Positions 3,009-25,614 of a stretch of 36,443 nt of DNA are shown in pieces. The stretch covers positions 1 to 36,443 of the forward strand of contig JAZDNL010000037.1 of NCBI GenBank assembly GCA_043799765.1, given 5' to 3'. Numbering within the stretch: the stretch's first letter is position 1; every line of letters starts with the position of its first letter. The notes below the pieces were generated by a model. The model saw only the letters and a program-made list of their open reading frames with translations, searched no databases and was not told where the DNA came from. A program made the translations under genes and the position numbers. This DNA comes from Candidatus Micrarchaeota archaeon (GTDB taxonomy: Archaea; Micrarchaeota; Micrarchaeia; Norongarragalinales; Norongarragalinaceae).

Positions 3009-3009
3009 A

Positions 3010-6269: not shown

Positions 6270-6271
6270 GC

Positions 6272-7528
6272 TCAAACCTCGTACGTCTTGTCCTGTTCTG
6301 GAGCGATGGCGTCGAAGCCCTCTTCCTCGGTTAATTGCTCCGCGAGCGCGTCGCAAACTCCTTTGTCTCCGTGGATGCAGTATACTTTATCGGGATTGAC
6401 GCGGCGCGCGTACTCGAGCAAATCATCAGCTCCCGCATGCGCGCTGAAATCGAAATGCCTGACCGGGAGCGAGATGTCGATTTTCCTGCCGTGGTCGCGG
6501 ATTTTCTTCTGCTCTTCGAGCATCCTGCCGTTGGTTCCGGCAACCTGGTAGCCCGTAAGGAACACGACGCCTTTCCCAGTTGCGTTCAGCTCGCGCATGT
6601 ACGAGAGCGCGGGCCCGCCGTCGAGCATTCCCGCCGTGGTGACGATGACGCACGGCTTCTTCGAGATGCGCCTTCTTGTCTCGCGGTCCTCGACGAGGTT
6701 CGCGCGCTCCATCGCGGAGAAAAGCGCCTTCTGGTTGCGGCAGTATGACGGGAAGTCGCAGGCTATCTGGGAAACAGTTTTGCCCATGCCGTCGAGATAA
6801 ATCGGAGCGCGGGTTTTCGCCGCGAGAACCTGCAGGATTTCCTGCGTCCTGCCTACGGCGAAGCAGGGAACGAGCACTGTTAGATTTTCGGCGAGGGCGT
6901 CGTTCACTGCGTCGCAAAAGGATTTTTCCAGCTCCTCGCGCGGCGGATGTATGCGCTGGGCGTAGGTGCTTTCCGTCACGAGCACGTCAACGTCCTCGTC
7001 AGGCGGCTTTGCGCCCAGGTGCATGCGCGTCGGCGTCGTCTTGAAGTCGCCCGTGTAGAGAAGCGTCTTCTTGTTCCGTATGAGCGCCTGCGCGCTGCCG
7101 AGTATGTGCCCTGCGTCAAGGAAGCGCAGCGTCGTGCCGTCGAAGAACTGGTAGTCGGAATCGTAGGAAAGCGCGGTGAGGCGCTTGTTCATGCGCTTGA
7201 CGTGCTGGCTGCCGTACGGAAGCGGCGTCTTGTTCTGCAACGCGACTTTCTCGGAATCCGCGAGCAGGAGATTCATAACCGGAATCGTCGGGAACGTCAT
7301 GAACGCGGGGACGTCGTGATGCTTGTATAGCGCAGGCAAAGCGCCGGAATGGTCCATGTGCGCGTGCGTCACTATCGCCGCATCCACCTTGTGCTGCTCA
7401 AGATTAGGCGCCAGATTCCCGTCGTGGATGCGGATGCCTACGTCGAGAAACAGGCGCGCCTCGCCGGTCTGGAGCCAGAAGCAGCTCTTTCCCACCTCGT
7501 TGCACGCGCCGAGGAAGCAGAGTTTCAT
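6272..7528 (-). CDS. Beta-CASP metallo-beta-lactamase ribonuclease (aCPSF2-like, no KH domains)
   Basis: HAHMDHSG motif. 418 aa with MBL plus beta-CASP architecture (...DAGHILGS...TESTY...HGD). Confidence 0.7.
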   Translation of the reverse strand: MKLCFLGACNEVGKSCFWLQTGEARLFLDVGIRIHDGNLAPNLEQHKVDAAIVTHAHMDHSGALPALYKHHDVPAFMTFPTIPVMNLLLADSEKVALQNKTPLPYGSQHVKRMNKRLTALSYDSDYQFFDGTTLRFLDAGHILGSAQALIRNKKTLLYTGDFKTTPTRMHLGAKPPDEDVDVLVTESTYAQRIHPPREELEKSFCDAVNDALAENLTVLVPCFAVGRTQEILQVLAAKTRAPIYLDGMGKTVSQIACDFPSYCRNQKALFSAMERANLVEDRETRRRISKKPCVIVTTAGMLDGGPALSYMRELNATGKGVVFLTGYQVAGTNGRMLEEQKKIRDHGRKIDISLPVRHFDFSAHAGADDLLEYARRVNPDKVYCIHGDKGVCDALAEQLTEEEGFDAIAPEQDKTYEV

Positions 7529-7551
7529 TCACGAAAACAAGGACGGGAACG

Positions 7552-7560
7552 TTTTTTAAT
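7552..7560. promoter_or_regulatory. Single central A/T box shared by divergent genes (beta-CASP RNase and acdB)
   Basis: TTTTTTAAT is the only A/T-rich element in the 52-bp spacer. It lies 28 nt from ATG 7528 (minus) and 25 nt from ATG 7581 (plus). Confidence 0.45.
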
Positions 7561-7580
7561 GATTGCCGAGTGCTTAGCGT

Positions 7581-8213
7581 ATGCTTCTCGACTACGAGGA
7601 CGCGAGGCGGCTCGCCAAAAAGTACGGGATGCCGCTCGTGGCGGGCAGATGCTTCACCACCCTCGACGAGGCCAAGGACATCGCACGGAAGCTCAAGCCT
7701 CCTTTCGTAGTCAAGGTTCTCGGTCCCGGAGTGATGCACAAGACGGAGAAGCGGCTGATTGCGCTCAACCTCGACTCCCTTGACGAGATAAGCGTTGCGA
7801 TGGACAAGCTGTCGCGCAACGCCCGCGGAATGGAAGTCGACTGCTTCCTGATGCAGGAGCAGAGGCAGGGCGTGGAACTCATCATAGGCGGGAAGCGCGA
7901 CCCCGCTTTCGGCGCAATCGTGCTTTTCGGCTCCGGCGGAATCATGGCGGAATTGTACGGCGACGTGGCGATGCGGGCGGCGCCGCTTTCGCGCAAGGAC
8001 GCGCTGGAAATGCTTGCGGAAACCAAGGCGAATGCGTTCTTCTCGGAAAAGGGGTTCCGCGGACGGAAGGCGTGCGAGGACTGCGTAGTGAAGCTGCTGA
8101 TCGGGACGTCGCGGCTGATGCTCGGCGAACCGCAGGTAAAGGAGCTGGATTTCAACCCGGTTATTGCAGACACGCGCGAAGCCGCGATAGTGGACGCGAG
8201 GATAATCGTATGA
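7581..8213 (+). CDS. acdB: ADP-forming acetyl-CoA synthetase, beta (ATP-grasp) subunit
   Basis: ATP-grasp-type N-terminus YEDARRLAKKYGMPLV...PFVVKV. ATGA-coupled to the alpha-subunit gene. Confidence 0.65.
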   Translation: MLLDYEDARRLAKKYGMPLVAGRCFTTLDEAKDIARKLKPPFVVKVLGPGVMHKTEKRLIALNLDSLDEISVAMDKLSRNARGMEVDCFLMQEQRQGVELIIGGKRDPAFGAIVLFGSGGIMAELYGDVAMRAAPLSRKDALEMLAETKANAFFSEKGFRGRKACEDCVVKLLIGTSRLMLGEPQVKELDFNPVIADTREAAIVDARIIV

Positions 8214-9589
8214 GCGGGCTCGACGCACTGCTGGAACCGAAGAGCGTCGCGGTGATAGGCGCGTCGCGCGACCCGAAGAGCGTCGGGTACGGCGTGCTTC
8301 AGGGGCTGCTGAAGGGCTGCGTCCTGCCATCGGAATATGCCAAGCCTTTCGGCGGGAAGGTTTACGCGGTAAACCCGAACGCGGAAAAAATACTCGGCAC
8401 AAGATGCTACGCGGACGTTAAGGATATTTCGGGCACTGTTGATTTGGCGGTAATCTGCGTGCCTGCCAAGGTGGTTCCGGCGGTGCTGAGGGACTGCGCG
8501 GAGAAAAAGGTGAAGGCGGCGGTTGTTGTTTCGGCCGGTTTCGCCGAAACAGGGGACGCGACGCTTCAGGAGGAAATTGCGGCAATCGCGAAGCGCGGAG
8601 GCATGCGGTTGCTCGGCCCGAACTGCCTCGGCGTCATCCGGCCGTCGAAATCGCTCAACGCTTCATTCGGCTTAAGCATGCCTCGCGCAGGAGGAACGGC
8701 CTTTGTAACGCAATCCGGCGCGCTCGCGGACAGCATCATCGACTGGGCGCTGGAGGAGATGTACGCTTTCAGCGCCATCGTGAGCCTCGGAAACAAGGCG
8801 GACATTGACGAGGCGGATTTGACGGAATGGTTCGGCCGCGACGGGGAAACAAAGGCGATTGCGCTTTATCTCGAAGGCGTGAGGAATGGGCACAAGCTGA
8901 TGACCGCGGTGAAAACCGCGGTGGCCCGCGGTAAGGCGGTGCTCGTGCTTAAGGGCGGAAGGCGCGGCGAGGGCGCGAAGGCTGTTTCCTCCCACACAGG
9001 CGCGCTCGCGGGCTCGTACGCCGTCTTCGAGGCGGCGATGCGCCAGAGCGGCGCCGTTGTCGTCGAAAGCCTGGAGGAACTGTTCGGGTTGGCGAAAGCC
9101 GCCAGCGAACAGCCGAGAGCCGCGGGCAATGCCGTCGCGGTAGTCACGAACGGCGGGGGCGCGGGAGTGCTTTGCGCGGACTATTGCGAGGAATTCGGAG
9201 TGAAGCTCGCGGAACTGAAGGAGGCGACGCTTAGCAAACTCGATGCTACGAAGCTCATGCATCCCGCGTATTCGCGGCGCAACCCCCTTGATTTGGTGGG
9301 CGACGCTACTGCGAAAAGGTACGAAGCGGCGCTGAATATCCTTCTGGCGGACGACGGCGTGAAGGCGGCAATCGTGATTCAGACGCTCCAGACCATGACC
9401 GAAGCGGAGGAGGACGCGCGGACCGTGCTGCGCATGCGGAAAAAATACCCGAAGAAACCCATCGTGTGCGTTTTCATGGGCGGGAAATACAGCAAAGCCG
9501 CGATTCGCCTGCTGAGCGAGAACGGCGTGCCCAACTACGACGACCCGCGGAAGGCGGCGAAAGCGATGGCGCTTCTCGTCGGCGCGTGA
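8210..9589 (+). CDS. acdA: ADP-forming acetyl-CoA synthetase, alpha (CoA-binding/ligase-CoA) subunit
   Basis: LLEPKSVAVIGASRDPKSVGY (CoA-binding), GPNCLG and FVTQSGAL (succinyl-CoA-synthetase-like). The ATG at 8210 overlaps the acdB stop; the 8072 extension is Arg-rich and implausible. Confidence 0.75.
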   Translation: MSGLDALLEPKSVAVIGASRDPKSVGYGVLQGLLKGCVLPSEYAKPFGGKVYAVNPNAEKILGTRCYADVKDISGTVDLAVICVPAKVVPAVLRDCAEKKVKAAVVVSAGFAETGDATLQEEIAAIAKRGGMRLLGPNCLGVIRPSKSLNASFGLSMPRAGGTAFVTQSGALADSIIDWALEEMYAFSAIVSLGNKADIDEADLTEWFGRDGETKAIALYLEGVRNGHKLMTAVKTAVARGKAVLVLKGGRRGEGAKAVSSHTGALAGSYAVFEAAMRQSGAVVVESLEELFGLAKAASEQPRAAGNAVAVVTNGGGAGVLCADYCEEFGVKLAELKEATLSKLDATKLMHPAYSRRNPLDLVGDATAKRYEAALNILLADDGVKAAIVIQTLQTMTEAEEDARTVLRMRKKYPKKPIVCVFMGGKYSKAAIRLLSENGVPNYDDPRKAAKAMALLVGA

Positions 9590-9647
9590 CGCGCAATTTT
9601 ATTAATGCAAACGGCGAAGCAGTATTGCTAGTTGTGGGGATGACGGC

Positions 9648-10517
9648 ATGCGAATGAAGACGGGCAGCGAGCGTCTGAAAAGGGGGTTCGCGTCGATGCA
9701 GAAAGGCGGCGTCATAATGGACGTGGTCAGCCCCAAGCAGGCGCGAATCGCGGAAAAAGCCGGCGCCGTGGCGGTTATGGCGCTCCACGCGATTCCGGCG
9801 GACATACGCGCTCTCGGAGGAGTGGCGCGGATGGCGTATCCCGAGCGCATAGAGGAAATCATGGCCGCGGTTACTATTCCGGTTATGGCGAAGTGCAGGA
9901 TAGGGCATTTCGCCGAGGCGCAGGTGCTGCAGGAAATCGGGGTTGACATGATAGACGAGTCCGAGGTGCTCACCCCGGCGGACAGCAGGCACATAGACAA
10001 AAAGAAATTCACCGTTCCGTTCGTCTGCGGCTGCCGCAACCTGGGAGAGGCGCTGCGCAGGATAGGCGAGGGCGCGGCGATGATACGCACCAAAGGCGAA
10101 CCCGGAACGGGCAACGTCGCCGAAGCTGTTAAGCATGTGCGGCAGGTTAGCGCGGAGATTGCGGGACTGCGCGGCGCGGATTTCGCCGCAAAGGCGCGCG
10201 AATACCGCGTGCCTGTTGCGCTTGTCAGGGAAACCGCGGCGCTGGCACGGCTGCCAGTAGTGAATTTCGCCGCAGGCGGCATAGCGACCCCGGCGGACGC
10301 GTCGCTTATGATGCAGCTCGGGGTTGACGGCGTGTTCGTCGGCTCGGGCATATTCAAGTCGTCGAAGCCCGAAACGCTCGCAAAGGCGATTGTACAAGCG
10401 ACGCGCGAGTACGACAAACCCAAGGAGGTGCTGAAGGCGTCGCGGAACGCGGGAGTGCCGATGAAGGGGATGGGCGACATTCCGGAAGCGGAGCGCATGC
10501 AGGACAGGAGCAACTGA
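9648..10517 (+). CDS. pdxS: Pyridoxal 5'-phosphate synthase lyase subunit PdxS
   Basis: [18 protein letters not shown] and [15 protein letters not shown] motifs. Confidence 0.9.
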
Positions 10518-10522
10518 TTCTC

Positions 10523-11095
10523 GTGAGGAAGACAATAGGCGTTCTCGGGCTCCAGGGCGCGATTTCCGAGCACGTCGGCGCACTTGCAAGGGCGGGGGCG
10601 GCCGGAAAAAGGGTGAGGCGGCTTGACGAACTCGACGGCCTGGACGGGCTCATCATTCCGGGCGGTGAATCAACTGCAATCGGAAAACTGATGCAGGCGT
10701 CGGGAATGTTCGAACGCGTGCGGGAGCTCGCCAGGGAAGGTTTTCCCATCTACGGGACGTGCGCGGGAATGATACTGCTCGCGAAAAAAGGCGGCGCTCT
10801 TGGGAGCGGGCAAAAGCTGCTCGGGCTCATGGACATGGAGGTTGAGCGCAACGCGTTCGGCAGGCAGCGGGAATCTTTCGAGGCGGACGTGGACATCGAG
10901 GGAATCGGAAAGTTCCCTTGCGCGTTCATACGCGCGCCTGCCGCCGTAAAGGTGTGGGACGGGTGCACGCCGCTCGGCAGGTACGGGAAATTCATAGTCG
11001 CGGCAAGGCAGGGGAACCTTTTCGCAACCGCGTTCCATCCCGAACTCGTCGCCGACAGCCGCGTCCACGAGTATTTCATAAGGGAATTCTGCTGA
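10523..11095 (+). CDS. pdxT: Pyridoxal 5'-phosphate synthase glutaminase subunit PdxT
   Basis: IGVLGLQGA, IIPGGESTA, GTCAG (nucleophile Cys) and AFHPEL motifs. Adjacent to pdxS. Confidence 0.9.
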   Translation: MRKTIGVLGLQGAISEHVGALARAGAAGKRVRRLDELDGLDGLIIPGGESTAIGKLMQASGMFERVRELAREGFPIYGTCAGMILLAKKGGALGSGQKLLGLMDMEVERNAFGRQRESFEADVDIEGIGKFPCAFIRAPAAVKVWDGCTPLGRYGKFIVAARQGNLFATAFHPELVADSRVHEYFIREFC

Positions 11096-11106
11096 AGAGC
11101 AAGCGC

Positions 11107-11114
11107 TTTTTAAT
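11107..11114 (+). promoter_or_regulatory. TATA-like box for the idsA-ispH-ispE operon
   Basis: TTTTTAAT, about 24 nt upstream of ATG 11135. Confidence 0.45.
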
Positions 11115-11134
11115 GCTGGCGCGGTGTTTTAGCC

Positions 11135-12157
11135 ATGGACGTTTTGTCGGTGCTGCAGCAGAAATCCAAGGTGATAGACGCCAGCCTGCCGCTTTTCCTG
11201 CCGAAACGCGAGGGTTCGGGCTGGAAGAAGGATTATCGCGACATGCTGTGGGACTACAACCTGCGGGGCGGAAAAAGGCTGCGGCCCGCGCTGTGCATGC
11301 TTTCGTGCGAGGCTTTTTGGGGGAAGCAGGAGCAGGCGGTCCCGACAGCCGTAGCGCTCGAGCTTCTGCAGAACTTCTTCCTTGTTCACGATGACATAGA
11401 GGACGAGAGCCTTCAACGCAGGGGGAAGCCGTGCCTGCACCTCATTTACGGCATTCCGTACGCGATAAACGCAGGGGACGCGACGTTCGTGAAGGTGTGG
11501 GAGACGCTGATGGCGAACCGCGGCGTGCTGGGCGATGAAAAAGCGCTGGAAATCCTTGAGGAGTTCGTCGGCCTCTGCAATAGGACAACGGAAGGGCAGA
11601 TGCGCGAGATGTTCTGGGTCAAGGAAAAGGAATGGGACATCGACGAGAAGGATTATTTTGAGATGGCTGGGGAGAAGGCTGGCTATTACACCGTCGTCGC
11701 GCCGCTGCGGCTCGGCGCGATATGCGCGGGGCGCGGCGGGTTGAAAAGCAATTTCGACTCGTGGGGAATCAAATGGGGCGTCGCGTTCCAGATTCAGGAC
11801 GACCTGCTGAACGCCGTCGGCGGGAAGAAATACGGGAAGGAAATCGGCGGCGACATCTACGAGGGCAAGCGCACGCTTCTTCTGATACATTTGATGGAGC
11901 ATTGCAGCTACAAGGAAAGGAAGGAAGTGCTGCGCATCATGAACAAGCCCCGGCAGAAGAAAACCGCGGCGGAAGTGAAGAAGGTTCTTGCGCTCATGAA
12001 GAAATGCGGGAGCGTGGATTACGCGCGCCGAACCGCCCGCGAACTCGCCGAGGAGGCGAAGCTCGGCTTCGAGAAAAGCTTCGCGGACGCGCGCCAGGGA
12101 GCGGCGAAGGAGTCGCTCCGCGCGCTTATCGATTACGTCATAGAGAGGGATGTCTGA
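11135..12157 (+). CDS. idsA: Polyprenyl (geranylgeranyl) diphosphate synthase
   Basis: First Asp-rich motif FLVHDDIEDES and second FQIQDDLLN. 340 aa. Confidence 0.85.
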   Translation: MDVLSVLQQKSKVIDASLPLFLPKREGSGWKKDYRDMLWDYNLRGGKRLRPALCMLSCEAFWGKQEQAVPTAVALELLQNFFLVHDDIEDESLQRRGKPCLHLIYGIPYAINAGDATFVKVWETLMANRGVLGDEKALEILEEFVGLCNRTTEGQMREMFWVKEKEWDIDEKDYFEMAGEKAGYYTVVAPLRLGAICAGRGGLKSNFDSWGIKWGVAFQIQDDLLNAVGGKKYGKEIGGDIYEGKRTLLLIHLMEHCSYKERKEVLRIMNKPRQKKTAAEVKKVLALMKKCGSVDYARRTARELAEEAKLGFEKSFADARQGAAKESLRALIDYVIERDV

Positions 12158-12981
12158 TGAAGGTTATCCGCGCCAGCAAGGCGGGCTTCTGCTTCGGCGT
12201 AAAGCGCGCCGTGAAGCTGTCCGAGGAGGCGTCAAGGGGGAAGGGGCCCGTGCACACGCTCGGCCCTGTTGTGCATAATCCGCAGGCAATCGAGCGTCTC
12301 GAGCATATGGGCGTCAAGGAGATAAACGAGATAAGGGAGGCGCGCAAGGGAACGGTGATAATACGCGCGCACGGCATTCCCCCTGAAGATTACAAGGCGC
12401 TTGAAAGCAAGGGCATCGAAATCGTTGACGCGACGTGCCCCTTCGTGAAAAAGGCGCAGGACTACGCGCGCATGCTGCACGACGAGGGCTATGCCATAGT
12501 CATAATCGGCGAGAAGGACCACCCCGAGGTGCGGGGAATCAAGGGGCACGCGAAAGAAGCCACGGTCATCGAAACAACCGAGGAGGCGGAGAAGCTGCCC
12601 ATGTGCGGGAAGATGGGCGTGGTCGTGCAAACCACGCAGGAGCAGGCGGTTGTCGGCAAAATCATCCCGATACTTTTCAACAAGACGAAGGAGCTTCGCG
12701 TCTTCAACACGATATGCAGCGCCACCGGCGAAAGGCAGGAGGCGGTGAAGGGGTTCGCGAAAAAGGTGGACGTCATCGTCGTGGTTGGCGGCAGGAACAG
12801 CGGGAACACGCGGCGGCTGGCGCAAATCGCCGAGCGCATCGCGCCCACCTACCACATCGAAACCGCCAGGGAACTGAAGAAGGAATGGTTCAGGGGCGCG
12901 AGAACCGTCGGCGTGGCTGCTGGCGCGAGCACGCCCGACTTCGTCATCGACGAAGTGGTGAAGAGGCTTGAAAGTTACTGA
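12157..12981 (+). CDS. ispH: 4-hydroxy-3-methylbut-2-enyl diphosphate reductase (IspH/LytB)
   Basis: MKVIRASKAGFCFGVKRAV, GPVVHNPQ, DATCPFV, FNTICSAT and GGRNSGNTRRL motifs. The ATG at 12157 overlaps the idsA stop (TGATG); the upstream part of ORF 11722.. is an Arg-rich read-through of idsA in another frame. Confidence 0.9.
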   Translation: MKVIRASKAGFCFGVKRAVKLSEEASRGKGPVHTLGPVVHNPQAIERLEHMGVKEINEIREARKGTVIIRAHGIPPEDYKALESKGIEIVDATCPFVKKAQDYARMLHDEGYAIVIIGEKDHPEVRGIKGHAKEATVIETTEEAEKLPMCGKMGVVVQTTQEQAVVGKIIPILFNKTKELRVFNTICSATGERQEAVKGFAKKVDVIVVVGGRNSGNTRRLAQIAERIAPTYHIETARELKKEWFRGARTVGVAAGASTPDFVIDEVVKRLESY

Positions 12982-13765
12982 GCGCGCCGATGCGAAGGTC
13001 AATCTCCTTCTCGACGCTGGCGCCGTGAAGGGCGGCTTCCACCAGGTGGACGCGGTCTTTCAGGAGATATCCCTCCATGACGACGTCGTCGTGGAAAAAT
13101 CGCAGAGGACGTGCGTCTGGTGCGTCGAGGTTTCAAAGAATAACATCGCGGAAAAAGCCGCGAAACTCTTTTTCGACAAGACTGAGGTGATAGGCGGCGC
13201 GAAAATCTCGATAACCAAGCGCATACCGACTGCCGCGGGATTGGGCGGCGGAAGCTCCGACGCCGCCGCGGTGATACGCGGGCTCAACAGGCTGTACGGC
13301 ACCGAGCTTACGAAAGAGGAAATGAAGGAAATCGGGCGCCAGGTTGGTTCGGACGTCTGCTTCTTCCTCGAGGGCGGCGCGTGCCTCGCGAGGGGCAGGG
13401 AATTCAACCTGACGAAGCTCAGGCCGAAGGCGCGCTTCTACGTAGTGCTCGAAACGCCGAAGGTGAAGCTGCCTGAAAAGAAAACCGCCTGGGTTTATTC
13501 GGAATACGACGGGATTGCGAAGAAAAAGCACTACGACGCGGACCGAATGGCTTACGCGGTGGAGCACGGAACGGCGAAAGAAATCGCCGCGCTGCTCGGA
13601 AACTCACTCGAGGACGTCGTCCTGAAGGCGTTCCCCGCGTGCGCGGCGGCGAAGAAGCGCCTTCTTGAAAAGGGCGCGCTCGGCAGCCTCGTAAGCGGCG
13701 CGGGGCCTACGGTATTCGGGATATTCGACAAAAGGGTTGCGGGCGCGTACGAAACGGTCGCCTAA
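12968..13765 (+). CDS. ispE: 4-diphosphocytidyl-2-C-methyl-D-erythritol kinase (IspE, GHMP kinase)
   Basis: AKVNLLLD...GFHQVDAVFQEISLHD and the GHMP motif PTAAGLGGGSSDAAAV. TTG start overlapping the ispH end by 14 nt. Confidence 0.75.
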   Translation: MKVTERADAKVNLLLDAGAVKGGFHQVDAVFQEISLHDDVVVEKSQRTCVWCVEVSKNNIAEKAAKLFFDKTEVIGGAKISITKRIPTAAGLGGGSSDAAAVIRGLNRLYGTELTKEEMKEIGRQVGSDVCFFLEGGACLARGREFNLTKLRPKARFYVVLETPKVKLPEKKTAWVYSEYDGIAKKKHYDADRMAYAVEHGTAKEIAALLGNSLEDVVLKAFPACAAAKKRLLEKGALGSLVSGAGPTVFGIFDKRVAGAYETVA

Positions 13766-14238
13766 TTTTTATAAACGAGCGCTACCGCGTACGCCATCAC
13801 GCCCTCGCCCTTTCCGAAGGCGGACAGCGTTTCCCCCGTAGTCGCGGTTATGCCGATTTTATCCGCGGGGATGCCCAGTATTTTCGAAAGCGACGCCTGC
13901 ATCTTCTCGAAGGAAGGTTCTATTTTCGGCTTCGCGCATTCTATCGAGATTGCGACGTTCGCGACGCCGTAGCCCGCGTCCTTCACTTTTTTCAGCGCGA
14001 CCTTTACGTATTCGCGGCTGTCTTTTACGCCTGCCTTGCACATGGCGTCGGCGTAGGAGGAAAGGGAGCGTCCGCCAACCGCCGACGTCAGGGCGTTGCA
14101 CAGCGCGTGAAGGACCACGTCGCCGTCGGAGTTCGCCTTGAATCCTTCGATGCCTTCGAACGCAACTCCGCCGAGCACGCACTTCCTTCCTTTTTCAAAG
14201 GCATGCGAATCGTGCCCCAACCCGATGCGAAATTCCAT
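13762..14238 (-). CDS. ispF: 2-C-methyl-D-erythritol 2,4-cyclodiphosphate synthase (IspF)
   Basis: FRIGLGHDSHAF and SDGDVVLHALCNAL motifs. The ATG at 14238 overlaps the ispD stop by 1 nt (TGATG). 158 aa. Confidence 0.9.
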   Translation of the reverse strand: MEFRIGLGHDSHAFEKGRKCVLGGVAFEGIEGFKANSDGDVVLHALCNALTSAVGGRSLSSYADAMCKAGVKDSREYVKVALKKVKDAGYGVANVAISIECAKPKIEPSFEKMQASLSKILGIPADKIGITATTGETLSAFGKGEGVMAYAVALVYKN

Positions 14239-15533
14239 CAAATCACCTGCAAAAGCGTTTTTACGCGCGCATAAATCTCGCGCAACCTGTTCTCCGCAAG
14301 CTCGCACGCCCTCGCGAGCATCGGGTTCTGCGGCTTAAGGCGCGACTGGATGTCCGCGAAGCGCTCGTCCAGCCCCATCACCACGCCGCCCTGCCCGACG
14401 CACAGGTCCGCGTACGTGAGTATCTCCGCGGCGAGCGACGACGGCAGCAAATCCTGCGGCGCGAACCCGTACTGCGACAGGTCCGTGCCGCGCAGCTTCG
14501 CCTCTTCGAACGCGGCGTTGTGCGAAAGCACGACGCGCGCGACGCCTTCCTCGTTTTTCGCCCGCAGGAAAACAGCGGCGTCAACCGCGTGCACGCCCGC
14601 CTTGTTCAGCGGTTCTGCGTAACCGATGTCGTGAAGCAGCGCCGCGATGCGCAATTCCTCGACGTCGAGAAGCTCTATGCGCTTCACGAGCGACGCCTGC
14701 GAGTATTTGCCCTTGGAAAGGTTCTCCTTGAGCTTGAGCGCGGTTTCCGCCGCGACGCGCGCGACTTCGAGATCGTGCTTGTAGCGCGTCGGGTTCTCGC
14801 CCAGATAATGCTTAAGCATCCGCATCGCGTCGTCGTACGTCAGGCGCGTCTTCGTCATCCTCCTCCGCAAAACGTCCTCGGCGAAAACGATGTCCTCGAG
14901 CGTGGTAATCTTGATGTTCTCGTAGCTCCCCTCGACGATTTTCACGGGCACGCCTATGCGCTCGACCAGCTGCGCGTCGTCGGTGCCGTAAAACTTCTCC
15001 GCAAGCGCCTTTTCGAACGCCTTCAACGCGACGTCGTACCTGATGCACTGCGGCGTCTGGATCGCCCAGAGCGCGGCGCGCACCGGCGTTTCCTGGACGA
15101 GCATGTCGGCGCCGACGCGCTTCACCGTTTCCTTCACGCGCGTCCCTACCACGGCGGCGCCCGTCTCCTTCGCGGCGTTTATGCACTCCGTAATCTCCTT
15201 CTGCGTAACGAGCGGGTTCGCGCCGTTGTGGATTGCGACGATATCGCAGGGCGGGCACGCCTTCAGGCCGTTGTAAACCGAATCCTGGCGCTCCTGCCCG
15301 CCGGCTACTACGGCGCGCACCTTCTTGAAGCCGAAGTCCTTCGCCATCGACTGGAAGTCGGGCATGCGCTCCTCCCCGCAGACTATTATGATGTCCGTGA
15401 CGAGCGGGTTGTCCTCGAACGCCTGCATCGCGTGCGCTGAAACGGGCTTGCCGAGAAGCGGGAACAGCTGTTTGCTGATTCCCCCGAGCCGCTTCGCCTT
15501 TCCGGACGCGGCAATAATCGCGACTACCTTCAT
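14238..15533 (-). CDS. ispD: 2-C-methyl-D-erythritol 4-phosphate cytidylyltransferase (IspD) fused to a C-terminal HD-domain phosphohydrolase
   Basis: aa 1-225 read VAIIAASGKAKRLGG...VAGGQERQDSV...YENIKITTLEDI (IspD). aa ~226-431 carry H..(48)..LLHDIGY...YADL, the H-HD-D pattern of the HD superfamily. Confidence 0.8.
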   Translation of the reverse strand: MKVVAIIAASGKAKRLGGISKQLFPLLGKPVSAHAMQAFEDNPLVTDIIIVCGEERMPDFQSMAKDFGFKKVRAVVAGGQERQDSVYNGLKACPPCDIVAIHNGANPLVTQKEITECINAAKETGAAVVGTRVKETVKRVGADMLVQETPVRAALWAIQTPQCIRYDVALKAFEKALAEKFYGTDDAQLVERIGVPVKIVEGSYENIKITTLEDIVFAEDVLRRRMTKTRLTYDDAMRMLKHYLGENPTRYKHDLEVARVAAETALKLKENLSKGKYSQASLVKRIELLDVEELRIAALLHDIGYAEPLNKAGVHAVDAAVFLRAKNEEGVARVVLSHNAAFEEAKLRGTDLSQYGFAPQDLLPSSLAAEILTYADLCVGQGGVVMGLDERFADIQSRLKPQNPMLARACELAENRLREIYARVKTLLQVI

Positions 15534-16603
15534 GCCTTTCGCCTCTCCTTCAGCATCGCGTCGATTTCATCGAACAGCGCGCCGACGATTTCTTTTTCGG
15601 GAACCTTGCGTACCACCTGCCCCTTCCGGAATATCACGCCTACTCCGCGTCCGCCTGCGACTCCGACGTCGGCTTCGCGTGCCTCGCCGGGGCCGTTTAC
15701 CACGCAGCCCATCACCGCGACGTGGAACGGTTCCTTGTACGCCTGCAGCCTTCCCTCGACTTCCTCGGCGATTTTTATGAGGTTGATTTCCGTGCGCCCG
15801 CACGTGGGGCAGGACGTCATTATCGGCCCGCGCTCGCGCATGCCCAGGTCCTTGAGTATTTCGTATCCGACGCGCACCTCTTCCAGAGGCGACGCCGTAA
15901 GGGAAACGCGTATCGTGTCGCCGATTCCTTCCATCAGCAGGGCTCCGAGCGCCATTGACGACTTGATGCTCCCGCCGAGAACCGTGCCTGCTTCCGTGAC
16001 GCCCAGATGAAGAGGGTAATCGCACTGCTTGGCCATGAGGCGGTACGCGGCAACGGTACGCGGGACATCACTGAACTTAAGCGATATCACTATGTCATGG
16101 AAATCCAAGGACTCCAGGATTTTCACGTGCCCTAACGCGCTTTCAACAGCGGCTTCGGGCGTCGGATGCCCGTACTTCTGCAGCAGCTTCGGCTCAAGCG
16201 AACCCGCGTTGACGCCGATGCGCATCGGGATGTGCGCGTTTTTCGCCGCCTTTACGACGGCGCGCACCTTTTCCTCTCCGCCTATGTTTCCGGGGTTGAT
16301 GCGCAGCTTCGAAACGCCGTTGTCGATGCACTTGAGCGCGAGCTTGTAGTCGAAATGGATGTCCGAGCAGACGGGAATGGGCGAATCCCTGGTGATGAGC
16401 TTGACTGCGTCCGCCGCCTTTTCATCGGGTATGGCGACGCGAACGAGTTCGCATCCCCGTTCGGCGAGGGCGCTTATCTGCTCCAGCGTTTTCTTCGCGT
16501 CGCGCGTATCGGTGTTGCACATGCTCTGCACAACTACGGGCGCACCGCCGCCGATTTTCACGGAACCCGCGTGCACCTGCCTGGATTTACGCCTTGGAAA
16601 CAT
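15530..16603 (-). CDS. ispG: 4-hydroxy-3-methylbut-2-en-1-yl diphosphate synthase (IspG/GcpE)
   Basis: VKIGGGAPVVVQSMCNTDTRD, RVAIPD, SCPTCGRT and MGCVVNGPGEA motifs. The ATG at 16603 (MFPRRKS) is preferred over the Arg-rich extension to 16687. Confidence 0.9.
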   Translation of the reverse strand: MFPRRKSRQVHAGSVKIGGGAPVVVQSMCNTDTRDAKKTLEQISALAERGCELVRVAIPDEKAADAVKLITRDSPIPVCSDIHFDYKLALKCIDNGVSKLRINPGNIGGEEKVRAVVKAAKNAHIPMRIGVNAGSLEPKLLQKYGHPTPEAAVESALGHVKILESLDFHDIVISLKFSDVPRTVAAYRLMAKQCDYPLHLGVTEAGTVLGGSIKSSMALGALLMEGIGDTIRVSLTASPLEEVRVGYEILKDLGMRERGPIMTSCPTCGRTEINLIKIAEEVEGRLQAYKEPFHVAVMGCVVNGPGEAREADVGVAGGRGVGVIFRKGQVVRKVPEKEIVGALFDEIDAMLKERRKA

Positions 16604-17738
16604 GTTTTTCAGCCTCTTTTCTCGCCCACGCGTCCGCCGCGAGTATCTCCTCCAGCGACGGCGACGAAACCGCGCGGTGCGCGGCAACTACCCTGCTTAC
16701 GGTTCCCGGAATGTCCATGAAACCGATTTTCTTGTTCAGGAAAGCAAAAACCGCGATTTCGTTCGCCGCGTTCATCACCGCGGGAACGGTTCCGCCCTTT
16801 TCGCCCGCGTTCAGCGCAATTCGGAAGCACGGGAACCGCTCCTCGTCGATTTTCTTGAACGTAAGGGAGCCGACTTCCGCCAGGTTCAGCCGCTTCAACG
16901 AGGGGTTCGGCAGGCGTTCGGGATAGGAAAGCGCGTACTGGATCGGCAGGCGCATGTCCGGCAAACCAAGTTGTGCCATCACCGACGTGTCCTCGAACTC
17001 CACGAGCGAATGAATCACGCTCTGCGGATGGATTACCGCCTCGATTTTTCCGTAAGGCACGCCGTAAAGCCAGTGCGCTTCTATCACTTCCAACCCCTTG
17101 TTCATCAGCGTCGCGGAATCAATCGTGATTTTCCCGCCCATCGCCCAGTTTGGGTGCTTGAGCGCCTGTTCGGGCGTTGCCTTCTCCATCTGCTCAAGCG
17201 TCCAGCCGCGGAACGAGCCTCCCGACGCCGTGATTATGATGCGCGCTATTGCCTTCCAGTTCTCGCCGTGTAGGCACTGGAAAATCGCGGAGTGCTCGCT
17301 GTCTATCGGCATGAGCGTGACGTCCTCCTTCTTAACGAGAGGCATCACGACGCTTCCGCCTGCGACCAGCGTCTCCTTGTTCGCGAGCGCGACGTTTTTC
17401 TTCGCCTTGATTGCGGCGACTGTTGGCTTCAGCCCGGCTGCGCCGACAATCGCGGTGACGACGGTATCGCAGCCGTCCATCGTCGCCAGCGCGCGCAAGC
17501 CGTCCTCGCCGTGGAGGATTTCAATTGACGGAAGCTTGGAGCGCAGCTTTTTCGCATCCTCCTCCTTTGAAACGCAAACCGCCTTGGGTTTAAACTGCTT
17601 CGCCTGTTTTTCAATAAGTTCGACGTTCCCGCCGGCACTAAGTCCGACTATTTTAAATTTTTCAGGGAAGCGGCTGGCGACGTCCAGCGTCTGGGTGCCG
17701 ATGGAGCCCGTTGAACCGAGAACGCACAAGCGCTTCAT
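16587..17738 (-). CDS. dxr: 1-deoxy-D-xylulose 5-phosphate reductoisomerase (Dxr/IspC)
   Basis: MKRLCVLGSTGSIGTQTLDV, LANKETLV, PIDSEHSAIFQC and NAANE motifs. The ATG at 17738 overlaps the dxs stop (ATGA); the 106-aa upstream extension is Arg-rich noise. Confidence 0.9.
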   Translation of the reverse strand: MKRLCVLGSTGSIGTQTLDVASRFPEKFKIVGLSAGGNVELIEKQAKQFKPKAVCVSKEEDAKKLRSKLPSIEILHGEDGLRALATMDGCDTVVTAIVGAAGLKPTVAAIKAKKNVALANKETLVAGGSVVMPLVKKEDVTLMPIDSEHSAIFQCLHGENWKAIARIIITASGGSFRGWTLEQMEKATPEQALKHPNWAMGGKITIDSATLMNKGLEVIEAHWLYGVPYGKIEAVIHPQSVIHSLVEFEDTSVMAQLGLPDMRLPIQYALSYPERLPNPSLKRLNLAEVGSLTFKKIDEERFPCFRIALNAGEKGGTVPAVMNAANEIAVFAFLNKKIGFMDIPGTVSRVVAAHRAVSSPSLEEILAADAWARKEAEKHVSKA

Positions 17739-19603
17739 TTTCCGCACAACCTTTCGATTCCCTTGAGAACCCCTTCCTTGTTCAGACCATACTGCGCGAG
17801 GAGGATGTCCGGCGCGCCGTGCTCGATGAACTCGTCGGGATAGCCGAGGCAGTGCACCTTCGCTGCGATTCCCTGGCGCGCAAGCAGCTCGAGAATCTCG
17901 CTCCCGAATCCGCCCGCAAGAACGCCGTCCTCGACAGTGAGCACGTGCCCCGTCTTTTTCGCGTATTCCAGGATGAGCGTTTCGTCTAGCGGCTTGATGT
18001 ACTGCGGATCTATTACGGCGACGGAACGTTTCGACTCTTTTGCCGCCTCGAGGCAAACGTTCGCCATTACTCCCACTCCGATCAACACGGCGTCATTTCC
18101 ATCTTTCATCAGGTGGGCCTTTCCGAAAGGCATTTCCTTGAACTCCTTCTTCAGCGGCAAGCCCGGCCCGGAACCGCGCGGGTAGCGCACCACAACGGGG
18201 CCGTTGTGCTTGACGGCGGTGTAAAGCATGTCCTGCAGCTGCGGCTCGTTTGACGCCGACATTATCACCAAGTTCGGAACCGAACGCAGGAATGAGATGT
18301 CGAAAACCCCGTGATGCGTCGGCCCGTCGTCGCCGACTATTCCCGCCCTGTCGATTGCGAACGTTACGGGAAGGTTTTGCAGACAGACGTCGTGTATCAG
18401 CTGGTCGTAGGCGCGCTGGAGGAACGAGGAATACACCGCCACAACTGGGTGCAGGCCGTTTGAAGCCATTCCCGCCGCGAACGTAACGGCGTGCTGCTCC
18501 GCGATTCCCACGTCGAAGAAGTTCTCGGGGAACGCTTCCGCGAGTTTTATGGTCCCCGTTCCCGACGGCATCGCGGCGGTTATGCCCACTATTTTCTTGT
18601 CCTGCCTTACGAGCTCTACTAGCGTCTCGCCGAACACGTCCTGGAACGCGGGCTTGCCCTTTGCCTTGACGGGCTTGCCGCTTTCGGGATCAAAAGGGGC
18701 GCAGCCGTGGAAGCGCGGCAGGTCGTCCTCGGCGTATTCGCATCCCTTGCCCTTCTGCGTGATGACGTGAAGCAGCACGGGGCCGCGCATCTTCTTTATC
18801 ATTTCAAACGTTTCTATGAGTTTCGCGATGTCGTGCCCGTCAATCGGCCCGACGTACGTGAAGCCCAGTTCCTCGAAAACCAGGCCGCTCGTCAGAACCG
18901 TAAGCGCGGCTTCCCTCAAGCGGCGCACGGTGTCCACCAATTCCTTCTGCTCAGGAGGAATCTGGGACAGCATGTAGTAGATGTCCTGCCGCACGCGGTT
19001 GTACACGGGCCAGTTCGGCACTTTTTTCGCGAGCCGGTTGGTGTAGAACGACATCGCGCCGACGTTCGGCGATATGGACATGAAGTTGTCGTTCAGGATT
19101 ACGATCAGGTCGGTTCCGCGGTGCCCCGCCTGGTTCAGCGCCTCGAAGGACATCCCGCCGGTCATTGCGCCGTCGCCTATCACCGCAAGAACCTTGTAGT
19201 TCTCGCCTTTCATGTCGCGCGCCTGCGCTATGCCGAGCGCCGCGGATATGGACGTGGACGCGTGCCCCGTGCCGAAAACGTCGTGCTCGCTCTCGCACAT
19301 CTTGGGGAACCCGCTGATGCCCTTGTGCTGCCGTATCGTGCCGAAGCGTTCCCGCCTTCCCGTGAGGAGCTTGTGCACGTAGCACTGGTGCCCGACGTCC
19401 CAGACGAATTTATCGCGGGGCGAGTTGAAGACGTAGTGCATGGCTATGGTGAGCTCGACAACGCCGAGATTCGGCGCGAGGTGCCCGCCGGTGACGGACA
19501 CCGTCTTGATTATGGTCTCCCTTATCTCGGCGGCAAGCTTCGGCAGCTCCGCCGCCGAAAGCCGCTTCAAGTCGCTAGGGGAGTCTATGTTTTCCAGAAG
19601 CAT
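17735..19603 (-). CDS. dxs: 1-deoxy-D-xylulose-5-phosphate synthase (Dxs)
   Basis: GGHLAPNLGVVELT, WDVGHQCY, GTGHASTSISAALG and the IGDGAMTGGM ThDP motif. 622 aa. Confidence 0.92.
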   Translation of the reverse strand: MLLENIDSPSDLKRLSAAELPKLAAEIRETIIKTVSVTGGHLAPNLGVVELTIAMHYVFNSPRDKFVWDVGHQCYVHKLLTGRRERFGTIRQHKGISGFPKMCESEHDVFGTGHASTSISAALGIAQARDMKGENYKVLAVIGDGAMTGGMSFEALNQAGHRGTDLIVILNDNFMSISPNVGAMSFYTNRLAKKVPNWPVYNRVRQDIYYMLSQIPPEQKELVDTVRRLREAALTVLTSGLVFEELGFTYVGPIDGHDIAKLIETFEMIKKMRGPVLLHVITQKGKGCEYAEDDLPRFHGCAPFDPESGKPVKAKGKPAFQDVFGETLVELVRQDKKIVGITAAMPSGTGTIKLAEAFPENFFDVGIAEQHAVTFAAGMASNGLHPVVAVYSSFLQRAYDQLIHDVCLQNLPVTFAIDRAGIVGDDGPTHHGVFDISFLRSVPNLVIMSASNEPQLQDMLYTAVKHNGPVVVRYPRGSGPGLPLKKEFKEMPFGKAHLMKDGNDAVLIGVGVMANVCLEAAKESKRSVAVIDPQYIKPLDETLILEYAKKTGHVLTVEDGVLAGGFGSEILELLARQGIAAKVHCLGYPDEFIEHGAPDILLAQYGLNKEGVLKGIERLCGK

Positions 19604-19627
19604 AGACAGGATTAGGGCTTCCGAAAC

Positions 19628-19634
19628 AATAAAA
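19628..19634 (-). promoter_or_regulatory. TATA-like box for the dxs-dxr-ispG-ispD-ispF operon
   Basis: TTTTATT on the minus strand, about 28 nt upstream of ATG 19603. Confidence 0.4.
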
Positions 19635-19685: not shown

Positions 19686-19692
19686 TTTAAAA
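19686..19692 (+). promoter_or_regulatory. TATA-like box for the EamA-like gene
   Basis: TTTAAAA, 27 nt upstream of ATG 19716. Confidence 0.45.
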
Positions 19693-19715
19693 CACGCCTG
19701 CGTTGTTTTGAGCGT

Positions 19716-21424: not shown

Positions 21425-22465
21425 GTGATACTCGACGCGCAGGCGCTCGAAGCGAAACTGACGCCCGAGGCGGCGCTCTCCATCATACAGAAGTCGCTTG
21501 CGCAGAAGGGCTGGAAGAAGCACGAGGTTGCGGACATCAAGCTCGTGTACACGCCGTTCTGGACTTTTTCGTTCGACGTGGTCACGGGCGGGCAGGGTCC
21601 GACGCCGACCGGGCGCACGGCGCTCAACGCCTTTTCGGGAGAACTCAACGACTTGGTGCCGATTATCCTCGACCGCCCGATAAAGCGCTCTAAAACCGCG
21701 CAGGAGGGCGCCGAGGTGGAAAGCACAAGCGTCTCGCAGCACGAGGCGAAGGACACCGCCGCCATGAAGATAGCCGCGCACGTGGGCGGAATCACGAAGG
21801 ACATGATTTCGGTTTCGGCGCTGAACAAGATTTACGTTCCCTTTTATCGGGTTTGGGTGAACGTCAGCGACGACACCTACAAGATAGAGGTGGACGCGGC
21901 TATGGGCGCGCCGATGGGGCTCGATGAGATACCGACGCGCCAGAAGGGCTGGGACGAAGCCACCTCGGAAACCATAGACAGGATGAAATCCCCGAAAGGC
22001 TGGGCCGAACTCGGTGCGAAAACTGCAGGCGCGGCAGTAGGCGCAACCAAGCCGGGCGGGGAGAACACGCGCTACATCATACTCGGGCTCGTAATCCTCG
22101 TGCTCCTCTGGTTCGTGTTCGGCCGCGGAAGCGCGGGCGATGTCTCTTGCAAGCTCGACGACAACTATCTCGGCTCGCCGCAGTTCCTCGGGCTTTTCGG
22201 CGCTAAACCGATAGAGCCCGCCTACGGAATCAACAGCACGCTTTACGTCAGGGGGCAGTGCGACATCGCCAACAGGGGCACGGCTCCGATTCCCGTGGTC
22301 ATTGTTTCAATCGGCATAAAGAACGGCGACATCGCCATAGCGAGGAACACTATAGTCGCCAGGGACATCCCGGCAACCACGTCCGGCGCAACTCAGAAGA
22401 AATTCGAGCTCAACTGGACGAATACCGGCGCGACGGACTTCTCATTCGAATACGAAAAGCTTTAG
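21425..22465 (+). CDS. Hypothetical single-pass membrane protein with an internally duplicated N-terminal module
   Basis: 346 aa with one TM segment (YIILGLVILVLLWFVF, aa ~216-232). Two similar modules end in LVYTPFWTFSFDV and IYVPFYRVWVNV. I recognise no family. Confidence 0.55.
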   Translation: MILDAQALEAKLTPEAALSIIQKSLAQKGWKKHEVADIKLVYTPFWTFSFDVVTGGQGPTPTGRTALNAFSGELNDLVPIILDRPIKRSKTAQEGAEVESTSVSQHEAKDTAAMKIAAHVGGITKDMISVSALNKIYVPFYRVWVNVSDDTYKIEVDAAMGAPMGLDEIPTRQKGWDEATSETIDRMKSPKGWAELGAKTAGAAVGATKPGGENTRYIILGLVILVLLWFVFGRGSAGDVSCKLDDNYLGSPQFLGLFGAKPIEPAYGINSTLYVRGQCDIANRGTAPIPVVIVSIGIKNGDIAIARNTIVARDIPATTSGATQKKFELNWTNTGATDFSFEYEKL

Positions 22466-22480
22466 GTGGGTTGAAGGAAG

Positions 22481-23314
22481 ATGCAGGCGGAATCACCGAA
22501 GTATCCGTTTCTTTCCGCGTCGGGAAGCGTGGGGGGCGAGCTGAAGGAGGACGACATAGAGCGCGCCGCCGCGTTCCTGATGGACGCGCTGGCCGGAAGA
22601 ACGCACGTCCCTTCCACGAAAACATACGCTCTCTCCCGATTGCTCCTGCATGCGCTCGACGACGGCTGGGCGTACGGGAAGTTCGCCGATTCCATGGCGA
22701 AAACAATCCGGGATGAGGATGTCGCGGAGGTTGCGCGCGATTTCTTCCCTTCCTTCTCGCATGGCAGAATCCCGCTTCCCGAATACCTGAAAGGCGGAGG
22801 CTCGCTTTCCGGCGCGGCGCTTGAAAAGGGATTCGTCTCCGTCGACGCCGACGAATTGCGCTCGTTGGTGCGAAACGCGGTTCGGAAAAAAATACTCGAC
22901 TTCAGGAACGCCCGCCGCGACCTCATACCCAAGCGCGTGCTCGAAATCGCTGAGGAGTTGCGGAAGAAGCTGCCTAAGCCGTCGCACGTCGCGGCGCGCG
23001 GAAAGAATCTGGAGCTTCCGTGCGTGCAGGTCCTTCTGAAAGGGGAGCCCGAGGGTTCGCGCTATTACGGCGCAATGGCGCTCGCCATTGCTTGCGTCCG
23101 CGACGGGGTTTCGAAGGAGGCGGCGCTTGAAATAATGGAGGACTATTCCGGACGGTGCGCCCACGGCTCCCATCCCTTTTCGGCGCGGGAGGCGCGCGAC
23201 GTGGCGGAATGGGTTTACCGCCATCCCAACGTCCGTTTTTCGTGCAGGCGCATGCAGGACAACAACCTCGCGCCTGCCGGGCTTTGCGAAAAATGCAGGT
23301 GGAAGCCCCGATGA
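22481..23314 (+). CDS. priL: DNA primase large subunit PriL (putative)
   Basis: N-terminal KYPFL. The C-terminal segment ELPCVQVLLKG..SRYYGAMALAIACVRDGVSKEAALEIM plus further Cys residues (GRCAHG, FSCRR, CEKC) resembles the PriL Fe-S domain. ATGA-coupled to priS. Confidence 0.65.
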   Translation: MQAESPKYPFLSASGSVGGELKEDDIERAAAFLMDALAGRTHVPSTKTYALSRLLLHALDDGWAYGKFADSMAKTIRDEDVAEVARDFFPSFSHGRIPLPEYLKGGGSLSGAALEKGFVSVDADELRSLVRNAVRKKILDFRNARRDLIPKRVLEIAEELRKKLPKPSHVAARGKNLELPCVQVLLKGEPEGSRYYGAMALAIACVRDGVSKEAALEIMEDYSGRCAHGSHPFSAREARDVAEWVYRHPNVRFSCRRMQDNNLAPAGLCEKCRWKPR

Positions 23315-25035: not shown

Positions 25036-25056
25036 GAAAATATGCGGGAGCGCGCC

Positions 25057-25065
25057 TATTTAAAA
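25057..25065. promoter_or_regulatory. TATTTAAAA box between the divergent hypothetical gene and the GINS gene
   Basis: 26 nt from ATG 25035 (minus). A second box ATAAAAG (25074..25080) lies closer to ATG 25098 (plus). Confidence 0.4.
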
Positions 25066-25097
25066 CGCAACGCATAAAAGGCGCGACGCCGAAGAAG

Positions 25098-25613: not shown

Positions 25614-25614
25614 A

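Follow-up and report, generated by a model that had tools for sequence, protein, structure and literature searches.

Archaea are textbook users of the mevalonate (MVA) pathway. The question raised by the locus described here is whether an archaeal chromosome holds, in apparent working order, the complete bacterial route to isoprenoid precursors. The DNA analysed (the window) comprised 36,443 nt of the forward strand of contig JAZDNL010000037.1, assembly GCA_043799765.1, from a Candidatus Micrarchaeota archaeon. An open reading frame (ORF) listing, combined with Pfam and NCBIfam scans, placed eight genes within positions 11135-19603: seven for enzymes of the MEP/DOXP (methylerythritol phosphate/1-deoxy-D-xylulose 5-phosphate) pathway and one, idsA, for a prenyl diphosphate synthase. 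The window was interpreted as a segment of a Norongarragalina-like chromosome that carries a complete, apparently functional bacterial-type MEP pathway in two convergent, translationally coupled operons; we put the probability of this reading at about 0.85.

All seven MEP enzymes scored above the cut-offs of their NCBIfam equivalog models and carried the matching Pfam domains. Dxs reached 812 bits against TIGR00204 (cut-off 466) and 404 bits against DXP_synthase_N, and its translation contained the thiamine diphosphate motif GDG...NDN together with GGHL, AEQHA, DRAG..GPTHHG and RYPRG. A transketolase paralogue was ruled out by the model scores, since the transketolase models gave this protein no more than 212 bits, under their own cut-offs. 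Dxr (NF009114, 580 bits, cut-off 461; TIGR00243, 537 bits, cut-off 316) contained GSTGSIG, DSEHSA, NKGLEVIEA and HPNWAMG; the identities of GSTGSIG, DSEH and NKGLEVIE were assigned after the Escherichia coli enzyme. The IspD domain scored 190 bits against PF01128 and 205 bits against TIGR00453 (cut-off 181), with 5ddt as its top match in the PDB (E = 2.4e-50). IspE comprised the GHMP_kinases_N and GHMP_kinases_C domains (TIGR00154, 187 bits, cut-off 139) with the motifs KVNLLL, PTAAGLGGGSSDAAA and GSDV, while IspF (PF02542, 148 bits; TIGR00151, 160 bits, cut-off 116) contained GHDSH, SDGDVVLHAL and ATTGE.

The two iron-sulphur enzymes were compared with known structures. IspG scored 507 bits against PF04551 and 512 bits against NF001540 (cut-off 345), and its top PDB match was 3noy (E = 4e-109), to which CPTCGR and GCVVNGPGE aligned and were retained. 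For IspH the corresponding values were 322 bits (PF02401), 301 bits (TIGR00216, cut-off 188) and 308 bits (NF002187, cut-off 276), and alignment to its top PDB match, 3dnf (E = 1.3e-82), retained FCFGV, HNP, ATCP, HPEV, NTIC, SGNT and AGASTP. The cysteine ligands of the [4Fe-4S] cluster, three in each protein, were thus kept in IspG (CPTCGR and GCVVNGPGE) and in IspH (FCFGV, ATCP and NTIC). A preliminary description of this DNA had stated that each MEP product bears family-diagnostic motifs; these were present in the translations and the structure alignments, and the objection that the proteins are non-MEP paralogues failed. The pathway is complete and apparently functional, as judged from the intact catalytic motifs of all seven enzymes.

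In the proposed scheme, Dxs would condense pyruvate with glyceraldehyde-3-phosphate, and Dxr, IspD, IspE, IspF, IspG and IspH would convert the product to IPP (isopentenyl diphosphate) and DMAPP (dimethylallyl diphosphate). The archaeal-type IdsA, encoded just upstream of ispH, would then elongate IPP and DMAPP to farnesyl diphosphate (FPP), geranylgeranyl diphosphate (GGPP) or both, which would serve archaeal lipids and other isoprenoids. A flow of MEP products into archaeal ether lipids, as inferred in the preliminary description, is plausible.

The arrangement of the genes was examined by translation and by reading out each junction. The genes formed two convergent operons, idsA-ispH-ispE on the plus strand and dxs-dxr-ispG-ispD-ispF on the minus strand, and successive genes overlapped throughout. 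On the minus strand the overlaps were ATGA (4 nt) at dxs/dxr, 17 nt at dxr/ispG, ATGA at ispG/ispD and TGATG (1 nt) at ispD/ispF; on the plus strand they were TGATG at idsA/ispH and 14 nt at ispH/ispE. The converging stop codons of ispE and ispF overlapped at 13762-13765. The gene order, the strands, every overlap and the converging stops that had been described previously were all confirmed. With the chosen start codons, the protein lengths agreed with independent gene calls on related contigs (383, 357, 431, 158, 265, 274 and 340 aa), including an ispE of equal length, 265 aa, on contigs L083 and L084. Scans of the window for Rfam families and tRNA genes gave no matches. The coordinates are collected below.

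Table. Positions in the window of the pathway genes, the domains of the ispD product and the candidate promoter elements. Abbreviations: DXP, 1-deoxy-D-xylulose 5-phosphate; CDP-ME, 4-diphosphocytidyl-methylerythritol; MEcPP, methylerythritol cyclodiphosphate; and HMBPP, hydroxymethylbutenyl diphosphate.
Feature	Positions	Strand	Size or location	Family or comment
TATA-like box TTTTTAAT	11107-11114	+	about 25 nt before idsA start	candidate promoter of idsA-ispH-ispE
idsA	11135-12157	+	340 aa	polyprenyl_synt PF00348
ispH (HMBPP reductase)	12157-12981	+	274 aa	LytB PF02401
ispE (CDP-ME kinase)	12968-13765	+	265 aa, TTG start	GHMP kinase domains, TIGR00154
ispF (MEcPP synthase)	13762-14238	-	158 aa	PF02542, TIGR00151
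ispD gene (IspD-HD fusion)	14238-15533	-	431 aa	
HD-superfamily domain, C-terminal on IspD	14238-14855	-	residues about 227-431	PF01966
IspD domain (MEP cytidylyltransferase)	14856-15533	-	residues 1-226 of 431-aa fusion	PF01128, TIGR00453
ispG (HMBPP synthase, two-domain bacterial type)	15530-16603	-	357 aa	PF04551, NF001540
dxr (DXP reductoisomerase)	16587-17738	-	383 aa	three Dxr Pfam domains, NF009114
dxs (DXP synthase)	17735-19603	-	622 aa	DXP_synthase_N, TIGR00204
TATA-like box TTTTATTG	19627-19634	-	about 27 nt before dxs ATG	candidate promoter of dxs-dxr-ispG-ispD-ispF

Of the rival readings considered, the one that survived best is that the genes are kept mainly for other roles, such as DXP-derived cofactors, stress responses or signalling through MEcPP or HMBPP, or precursors of quinones and carriers only, while mevalonate feeds the membrane. 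Two routes in one small genome invite such a division of labour, and an HD domain on IspD (see below) may point to an extra step, regulatory or hydrolytic. Menaquinone biosynthesis has been reported in some Micrarchaeota (PMC12892359), and the MEP pathway is described as sensing oxidative stress in plastids and bacteria (PMC11192765). However, DXP would be unnecessary for vitamin B6 in this organism because the neighbouring PdxS and PdxT represent the DXP-independent route, all seven steps to IPP and DMAPP are intact, and the coupling of IspH to a short-chain prenyl synthase fits a flux of prenyl diphosphates. A mainly non-lipid role was considered unlikely.

Even less probable is that the MEP island replaced the mevalonate pathway and that the archaeon depends solely on the bacterial route for its membrane isoprenoids. 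The domain scans detected no mevalonate-pathway gene within the 36-kb window, which says nothing on the remainder of the genome, and a principal supply route is suggested by the tight operons and by their coupling to idsA. Against replacement, Norongarragalinales are reported to encode complete mevalonate pathways as well as complete MEP pathways (PMC12892359), an order-level statement that may not hold for each genome. In view of that report, the MEP pathway of the window is probably an additional, parallel route and not a replacement.

The residence of the pathway in an archaeal chromosome was assessed from its flanks and from other assemblies. Genes for triosephosphate isomerase (TIM), the alpha subunit of an ADP-forming ACS, a beta-CASP nuclease, PriS, PAC2, a TrmB regulator, NusA-KH, S7, aEF-2 and P0 with its L10P insertion domain were identified directly. 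Colinearity with the annotated contig L081 identified GINS, L44e and S27e. Of the archaeal neighbours listed in the preliminary description, TIM, ADP-forming ACS, PriS, aEF-2 and P0 were upheld directly and GINS, L44e and S27e by synteny; the Hel308 fragment at the start of the window had no Pfam match.

The same island was present on a 123-kb contig of Ca. Norongarragalina meridionalis, in the CG10 Micrarchaeota metagenome-assembled genome (MAG), in one ENA assembly and on three JGI metagenome contigs (contigs L081, L083-L085, L091 and L092; independent assemblies GCA_902384935.1, GCA_002778425.1, ENA ERZ27293400, JGI 3300025150, Ga0066637 and Ga0210017). In each case the island was bordered by EamA-DHH-PriS-GINS-L44e-S27e-PAC2 beyond dxs and by ACS beyond idsA. 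BLASTN alignments were colinear across the island, both borders and the flanks at 83.5-86.7% identity, from which it follows that the window represents a new species in or near Ca. Norongarragalina (Norongarragalinales, DPANN). Members of the genus have inherited the cluster in colinear form. The sole difference in colinearity was the insertion in the window of PdxS and PdxT between ACS and idsA.

The inserted pair, at 9648-11095 (+), encodes a DXP-independent pyridoxal-phosphate synthase. In N. meridionalis, ACS abuts idsA with a 22-nt gap and PdxS/PdxT are missing there, which amounts to a minor rearrangement between species at the edge of the island. Several conserved ORFs in the window had no Pfam match: two of 346 and 277 aa upstream of PriS (21425-23314, +) and two of 202 and 230 aa downstream of it (24427-25748, -). 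The 346-aa and 277-aa ORFs were syntenic in all Norongarragalina-like contigs, and the PriL that had been assumed to lie in this region may correspond to one of the two.

Codon usage agreed closely with that of the host: relative synonymous codon usage of the island and the flanks correlated at r = 0.989, and values of GC content at third codon positions (GC3) overlapped, at 0.72-0.85 for the island against 0.64-0.82 for the flanks. The island is fully adapted to host codon usage. An assembly chimera was excluded because the island and its archaeal neighbours were colinear on independently assembled contigs, in agreement with the archaeal residence proposed previously. A binning or assembly artefact, in which a bacterial fragment was joined to an archaeal contig, is a negligible prospect even though the best non-Micrarchaeota matches of all MEP proteins were bacterial and DPANN MAGs are often fragmentary, given the identical island with archaeal genes on either side in contigs assembled independently from different samples, the colinearity through both borders, codon usage and GC3 indistinguishable from those of aEF-2, PriS and other flanking genes, and an archaeal-type idsA translationally coupled to ispH.

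Both operons were preceded by TATA-like boxes. The element upstream of idsA, AGCGYTTTTTAA, was kept in N. meridionalis and in the CG10 MAG despite a different upstream gene. The box upstream of dxs, which is preceded by a purine-rich GAAAGGG, was kept in all four aligned orthologous loci, as TTTTATTG in three and as TTTTAATG in N. meridionalis. A further conserved box, at 19686-19693 (+), is suitably placed for the divergent EamA gene, which starts at 19716. The position of these boxes, 25-30 nt before the dxs, idsA and EamA starts, would fit archaeal promoters that give leaderless or nearly leaderless transcripts. The transcription unit of idsA may reach further upstream, as ACS, PdxS and PdxT share its strand at short intervals; a longer unit is disfavoured by the TATA-like box within the 39 nt that precede idsA, which was kept even where the upstream gene differed. 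The earlier proposal that the island had been domesticated was borne out by the codon usage and by the conservation of the boxes between species.

The origin of the pathway genes was examined using Dxs and IspG. A protein database search gave Dxs identities of 94% to Candidatus Micrarchaeota archaeon CG10, 93% to N. meridionalis and 60% to a third Micrarchaeota MAG; the next matches were Bacillota proteins at 57-59%, and an exact look-up of the window Dxs returned no record. A genome scan of GTDB with Dxs gave, among the matches listed, only bacterial loci, at no more than 57% identity. In a neighbour-joining tree (36 sequences, 606 columns, 100 bootstraps) the four Micrarchaeota sequences were monophyletic (100/100) and nested among Bacillota, namely relatives of Desulfotomaculum, Negativicutes and relatives of Moorella. 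The nearest IspG representatives in an exhaustive HMMER search were 61% and 57% identical, and both lay in a Bacillota-type rpsB-tsf-pyrH-frr-uppS-cdsA-dxr-rseP-ispG-proS context. Judged from these comparisons, Dxs and IspG have their nearest relatives beyond Micrarchaeota among bacteria, of a Bacillota-like kind, in line with the bacterial affinity previously suggested for the pathway. A donor among the Parcubacteria of the Candidate Phyla Radiation (CPR), suggested by CPR MAGs with the whole pathway in one cluster, was not supported by the Dxs tree, although for IspG the CPR protein (62-64%) and the Bacillota protein were equally similar.

The dxs-dxr-ispG-ispD-ispF order is derived, because ordinary bacteria link only ispA and dxs and because bacterial MEP genes are reported not to lie in operons (2026 review, PMC13001223). 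The same order was found on a distant Micrarchaeota contig, L082 (GCA_043800965.1), which favours a shared origin for the cluster in Micrarchaeota. The MEP genes would have been acquired from bacteria before the Norongarragalina-like lineages diverged, and would subsequently have been reordered into operons driven by archaeal promoters and linked to a prenyl synthase gene already resident in the archaeon.

The prenyl synthase itself differed in ancestry from its operon partners. IdsA belonged to the general family (PF00348, 204 bits) but scored 217 bits against NF040698 IdsA_Meth and 182 bits against NF041003 GGPP_syn, far below their equivalog cut-offs of 468 and 500. The first aspartate-rich motif (FARM) of the protein was DDIED, with no insertion, preceded by Phe at both -5 and -4; Phe at -4 occurred in five of 118 homologues. 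An aromatic residue at -5 combined with a FARM that lacks an insertion characterises type I archaeal enzymes under the chain-length rule of Ohnuma and Wang. Phe at -4 limits eukaryotic FPP synthases to C15, and Phe-Phe at -5 and -4 is typical of FPP synthases. The protein is an archaeal-type short-chain trans-prenyl diphosphate synthase whose product could be FPP, GGPP or both (C15-C20), and the earlier label of GGPP synthase was over-specific.

Within its own clade IdsA was 85% identical to its counterparts, or 86-92% identical by tblastn on the related island contigs. Outside this clade the closest homologues (45-55% identity) were, among those that carried names, all archaeal except for a single Zixibacteria MAG, and came from Diapherotrites, Njordarchaeum, Atabeyarchaeia, Micrarchaeota, Nitrososphaerales and Aenigmatarchaeota. 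The prenyl synthase at the equivalent position in L082 was 34% identical. Since IdsA is of archaeal type and lies amid MEP genes of bacterial type, idsA-ispH-ispE represents a chimeric bacterial/archaeal operon that was assembled in the archaeal lineage.

Several points detract from the interpretation of the window as carrying a complete, apparently functional and bacterially derived MEP pathway. Pathway function in this uncultured organism is a prediction from gene content. The donor lineage was judged from one neighbour-joining tree, in which the sister group of the Micrarchaeota Dxs clade was weakly supported (49/100), and from best matches. The sub-cut-off scores of IdsA and its Phe-Phe at -5 and -4 leave the product length at C15 or C20. 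Finally, in the published gene-tree reconciliation (PMC12892359), dxs does not receive the same treatment as the remaining six genes.

One feature of the island departed from the preliminary description, in which ispD had been listed as a plain gene of its family; membership of the IspD family was correct, but the gene encodes a 431-aa fusion of IspD to an HD domain. Residues 250-376 of the fusion matched PF01966 (39.9 bits, cut-off 22), and H253, H301-D302, H315, D318, H338 and D376 were invariant across 20 homologues. About 20 homologues of the HD part were detectable, most of them stand-alone proteins of about 170-310 aa with 29-41% identity; the genomic context of one of these was uninformative. 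An AlphaFold2 model of the HD part was all-helical (pLDDT 93). Foldseek comparison with the PDB gave HD or HD-GYP proteins as top matches, albeit weak ones (best E = 0.05, TM about 0.4), and a PDB sequence search gave no match covering this part. The H...HD...D signature and the all-helical fold are those of the HD-domain phosphohydrolase superfamily, and the domain is a putative metal-dependent phosphohydrolase or phosphodiesterase. It would most likely add a phosphohydrolase or regulatory activity to the MEP pathway.

The fusion was present in L081, L084, L085, L091 and L092, as determined from gene calls and by tblastn; it was intact, at 428-431 aa, wherever the gene had been called, and the more distant L082 had an IspD without the HD domain. 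In a scan of JGI metagenomes, full-length IspD-HD proteins occurred only at 89% identity or above, in Norongarragalina-like contigs. A search of the searchable literature for IspD, HD domains and fusions revealed no report of this architecture. The IspD-HD fusion is a small lead, apparently unreported and seen only in a narrow Norongarragalina-like clade.

Other phosphohydrolase domains were encountered near MEP genes. On L082, a 15.9-kb contig without ispE, positions 11646-12878 encoded an IspH-NUDIX fusion (LytB at residues 3-274, NUDIX at residues 282-390). On contig L095 a stand-alone HD_3/YfbR-like protein (2767-3393, -) lay about 2.7 kb from a low-GC ispE-dxr-ispD-ispH-ispG cluster, which may be coincidence. 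That two lineages of Micrarchaeota carry different phosphohydrolase domains, HD and NUDIX, fused to enzymes of the MEP pathway is suggestive. A more speculative idea, which we consider unlikely, is that the HD domain on IspD and the NUDIX domain on IspH are functional additions, which might hydrolyse a pathway intermediate or product (for example CDP-ME, MEcPP, HMBPP or IPP/DMAPP) and would constitute an undescribed regulatory layer specific to archaea that run both routes. If this were true, the fused hydrolases could control flux, detoxify intermediates or link MEP to the archaeal isopentenyl-phosphate/isopentenyl phosphate kinase (IPK) branch.

The island was compared with previously described systems. 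A complete bacterial MEP pathway, obtained by horizontal gene transfer (HGT), has been reported for Norongarragalinales, Zaosheniarchaeales and Micrarchaeales (Natl Sci Rev 2025, PMC12892359). Those Micrarchaeota include the lineage of the window (Dxs 93-94% identical), with the same seven genes, an inferred bacterial HGT and coexisting archaeal lipid genes. The window differs in being from another species, at about 84-87% nucleotide identity, and the published work comprised presence/absence data and gene-tree reconciliation; its searchable text and supplements contained no operon anatomy, coupling to idsA or IspD-HD. The description of N. meridionalis (Vazquez-Campos 2021) mentions neither the MEP nor the MVA pathway, and a literature search that combined Micrarchaeota with the non-mevalonate pathway found nothing useful.

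The MEP pathway has also been reported in a clade of 52 Woesearchaeota genomes, with the genes co-located near a UbiA prenyltransferase (Castelle et al. 2021, PMC8204110), having first been noted in the 2018 survey of Castelle and Banfield, as cited in that paper. Both cases involve DPANN archaea and bacterial MEP genes clustered beside a gene of prenyl metabolism. In contrast to the window, the Woesearchaeota-type clusters belong to another phylum, have a GC content of 31-37% (59% in the window) and show other gene orders, for example ispG-dxr-ispDF-x-ispE-ispH; the reported neighbour is UbiA in place of IdsA. Their proteins were 32-58% identical to those of the window, compared with 57-61% for the nearest bacterial Dxs and IspG. 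The two acquisitions were probably separate. A metagenome scan detected many low-GC contigs in which MEP genes were clustered but differently ordered. One of these, L134 (JGI Ga0209541_10001084, GC 37%), carried ispG-dxr-ispDF-acyltransferase-ispE-ispH followed by a polyprenyl synthase at 4908-13312, with archaeal flanks (S15P/S13e, an Rpb3-type RpoD and a presenilin-type peptidase) and no dxs within 8 kb; it is probably a Woesearchaeota-type cluster of the 2021 report. The preliminary description knew of no described seven-gene island joined to idsA; novelty fails against the 2021 and 2025 publications (PMC8204110 and PMC12892359). A complete MEP pathway in this order is already known, and what is new lies in details such as the IspD-HD fusion.

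Among bacteria, the Bacillota pathway shares with the window its enzyme families, catalytic residues and two-domain IspG, and includes the nearest relatives of Dxs and IspG, but its genes are scattered (ispA-dxs; uppS-cdsA-dxr-rseP-ispG-proS), whereas those of the window form two overlapping-gene operons with archaeal-type promoters. Two Parcubacteria MAG contigs, L011 (JABMPQ010000075.1) and L014 (JBDRPV010000052.1), have the seven MEP genes clustered on one strand within about 11 kb, in contrast to the scatter common among bacteria, and their IspG proteins are 62-64% identical to that of the window. The order in L011 is different (ispH-dxr-ispDF-ispE-...-ispG-uppS-dxs), IspD is fused to IspF, and the flanking genes of L011 are unmistakably those of a bacterium (MltG/YceG, Der, LytR-Cps2A-Psr, signal peptidase I and UppS); CPR Dxs was not closely related to the window Dxs in the tree. 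CPR bacteria share groundwater habitats with DPANN archaea. Bacterial IspDF fusions resemble the protein of the window in having a second catalytic domain C-terminal to IspD, but in the window the partner is an HD domain and IspF is encoded by a separate gene just downstream.

The window adds no new principle, as the same point was made earlier for Woesearchaeota (2021) and Norongarragalinales (2025). What it adds is a resolved anatomy: two convergent operons of overlapping genes, archaeal-type promoter boxes conserved between species, a chimeric idsA-ispH-ispE and complete codon amelioration. Typical bacteria, by contrast, have their MEP genes scattered, and the island gives ready coordinates for heterologous tests. 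The presence of a complete bacterial MEP route beside an archaeal prenyl synthase is relevant to the "lipid divide" and to the transfer of whole pathways between domains.

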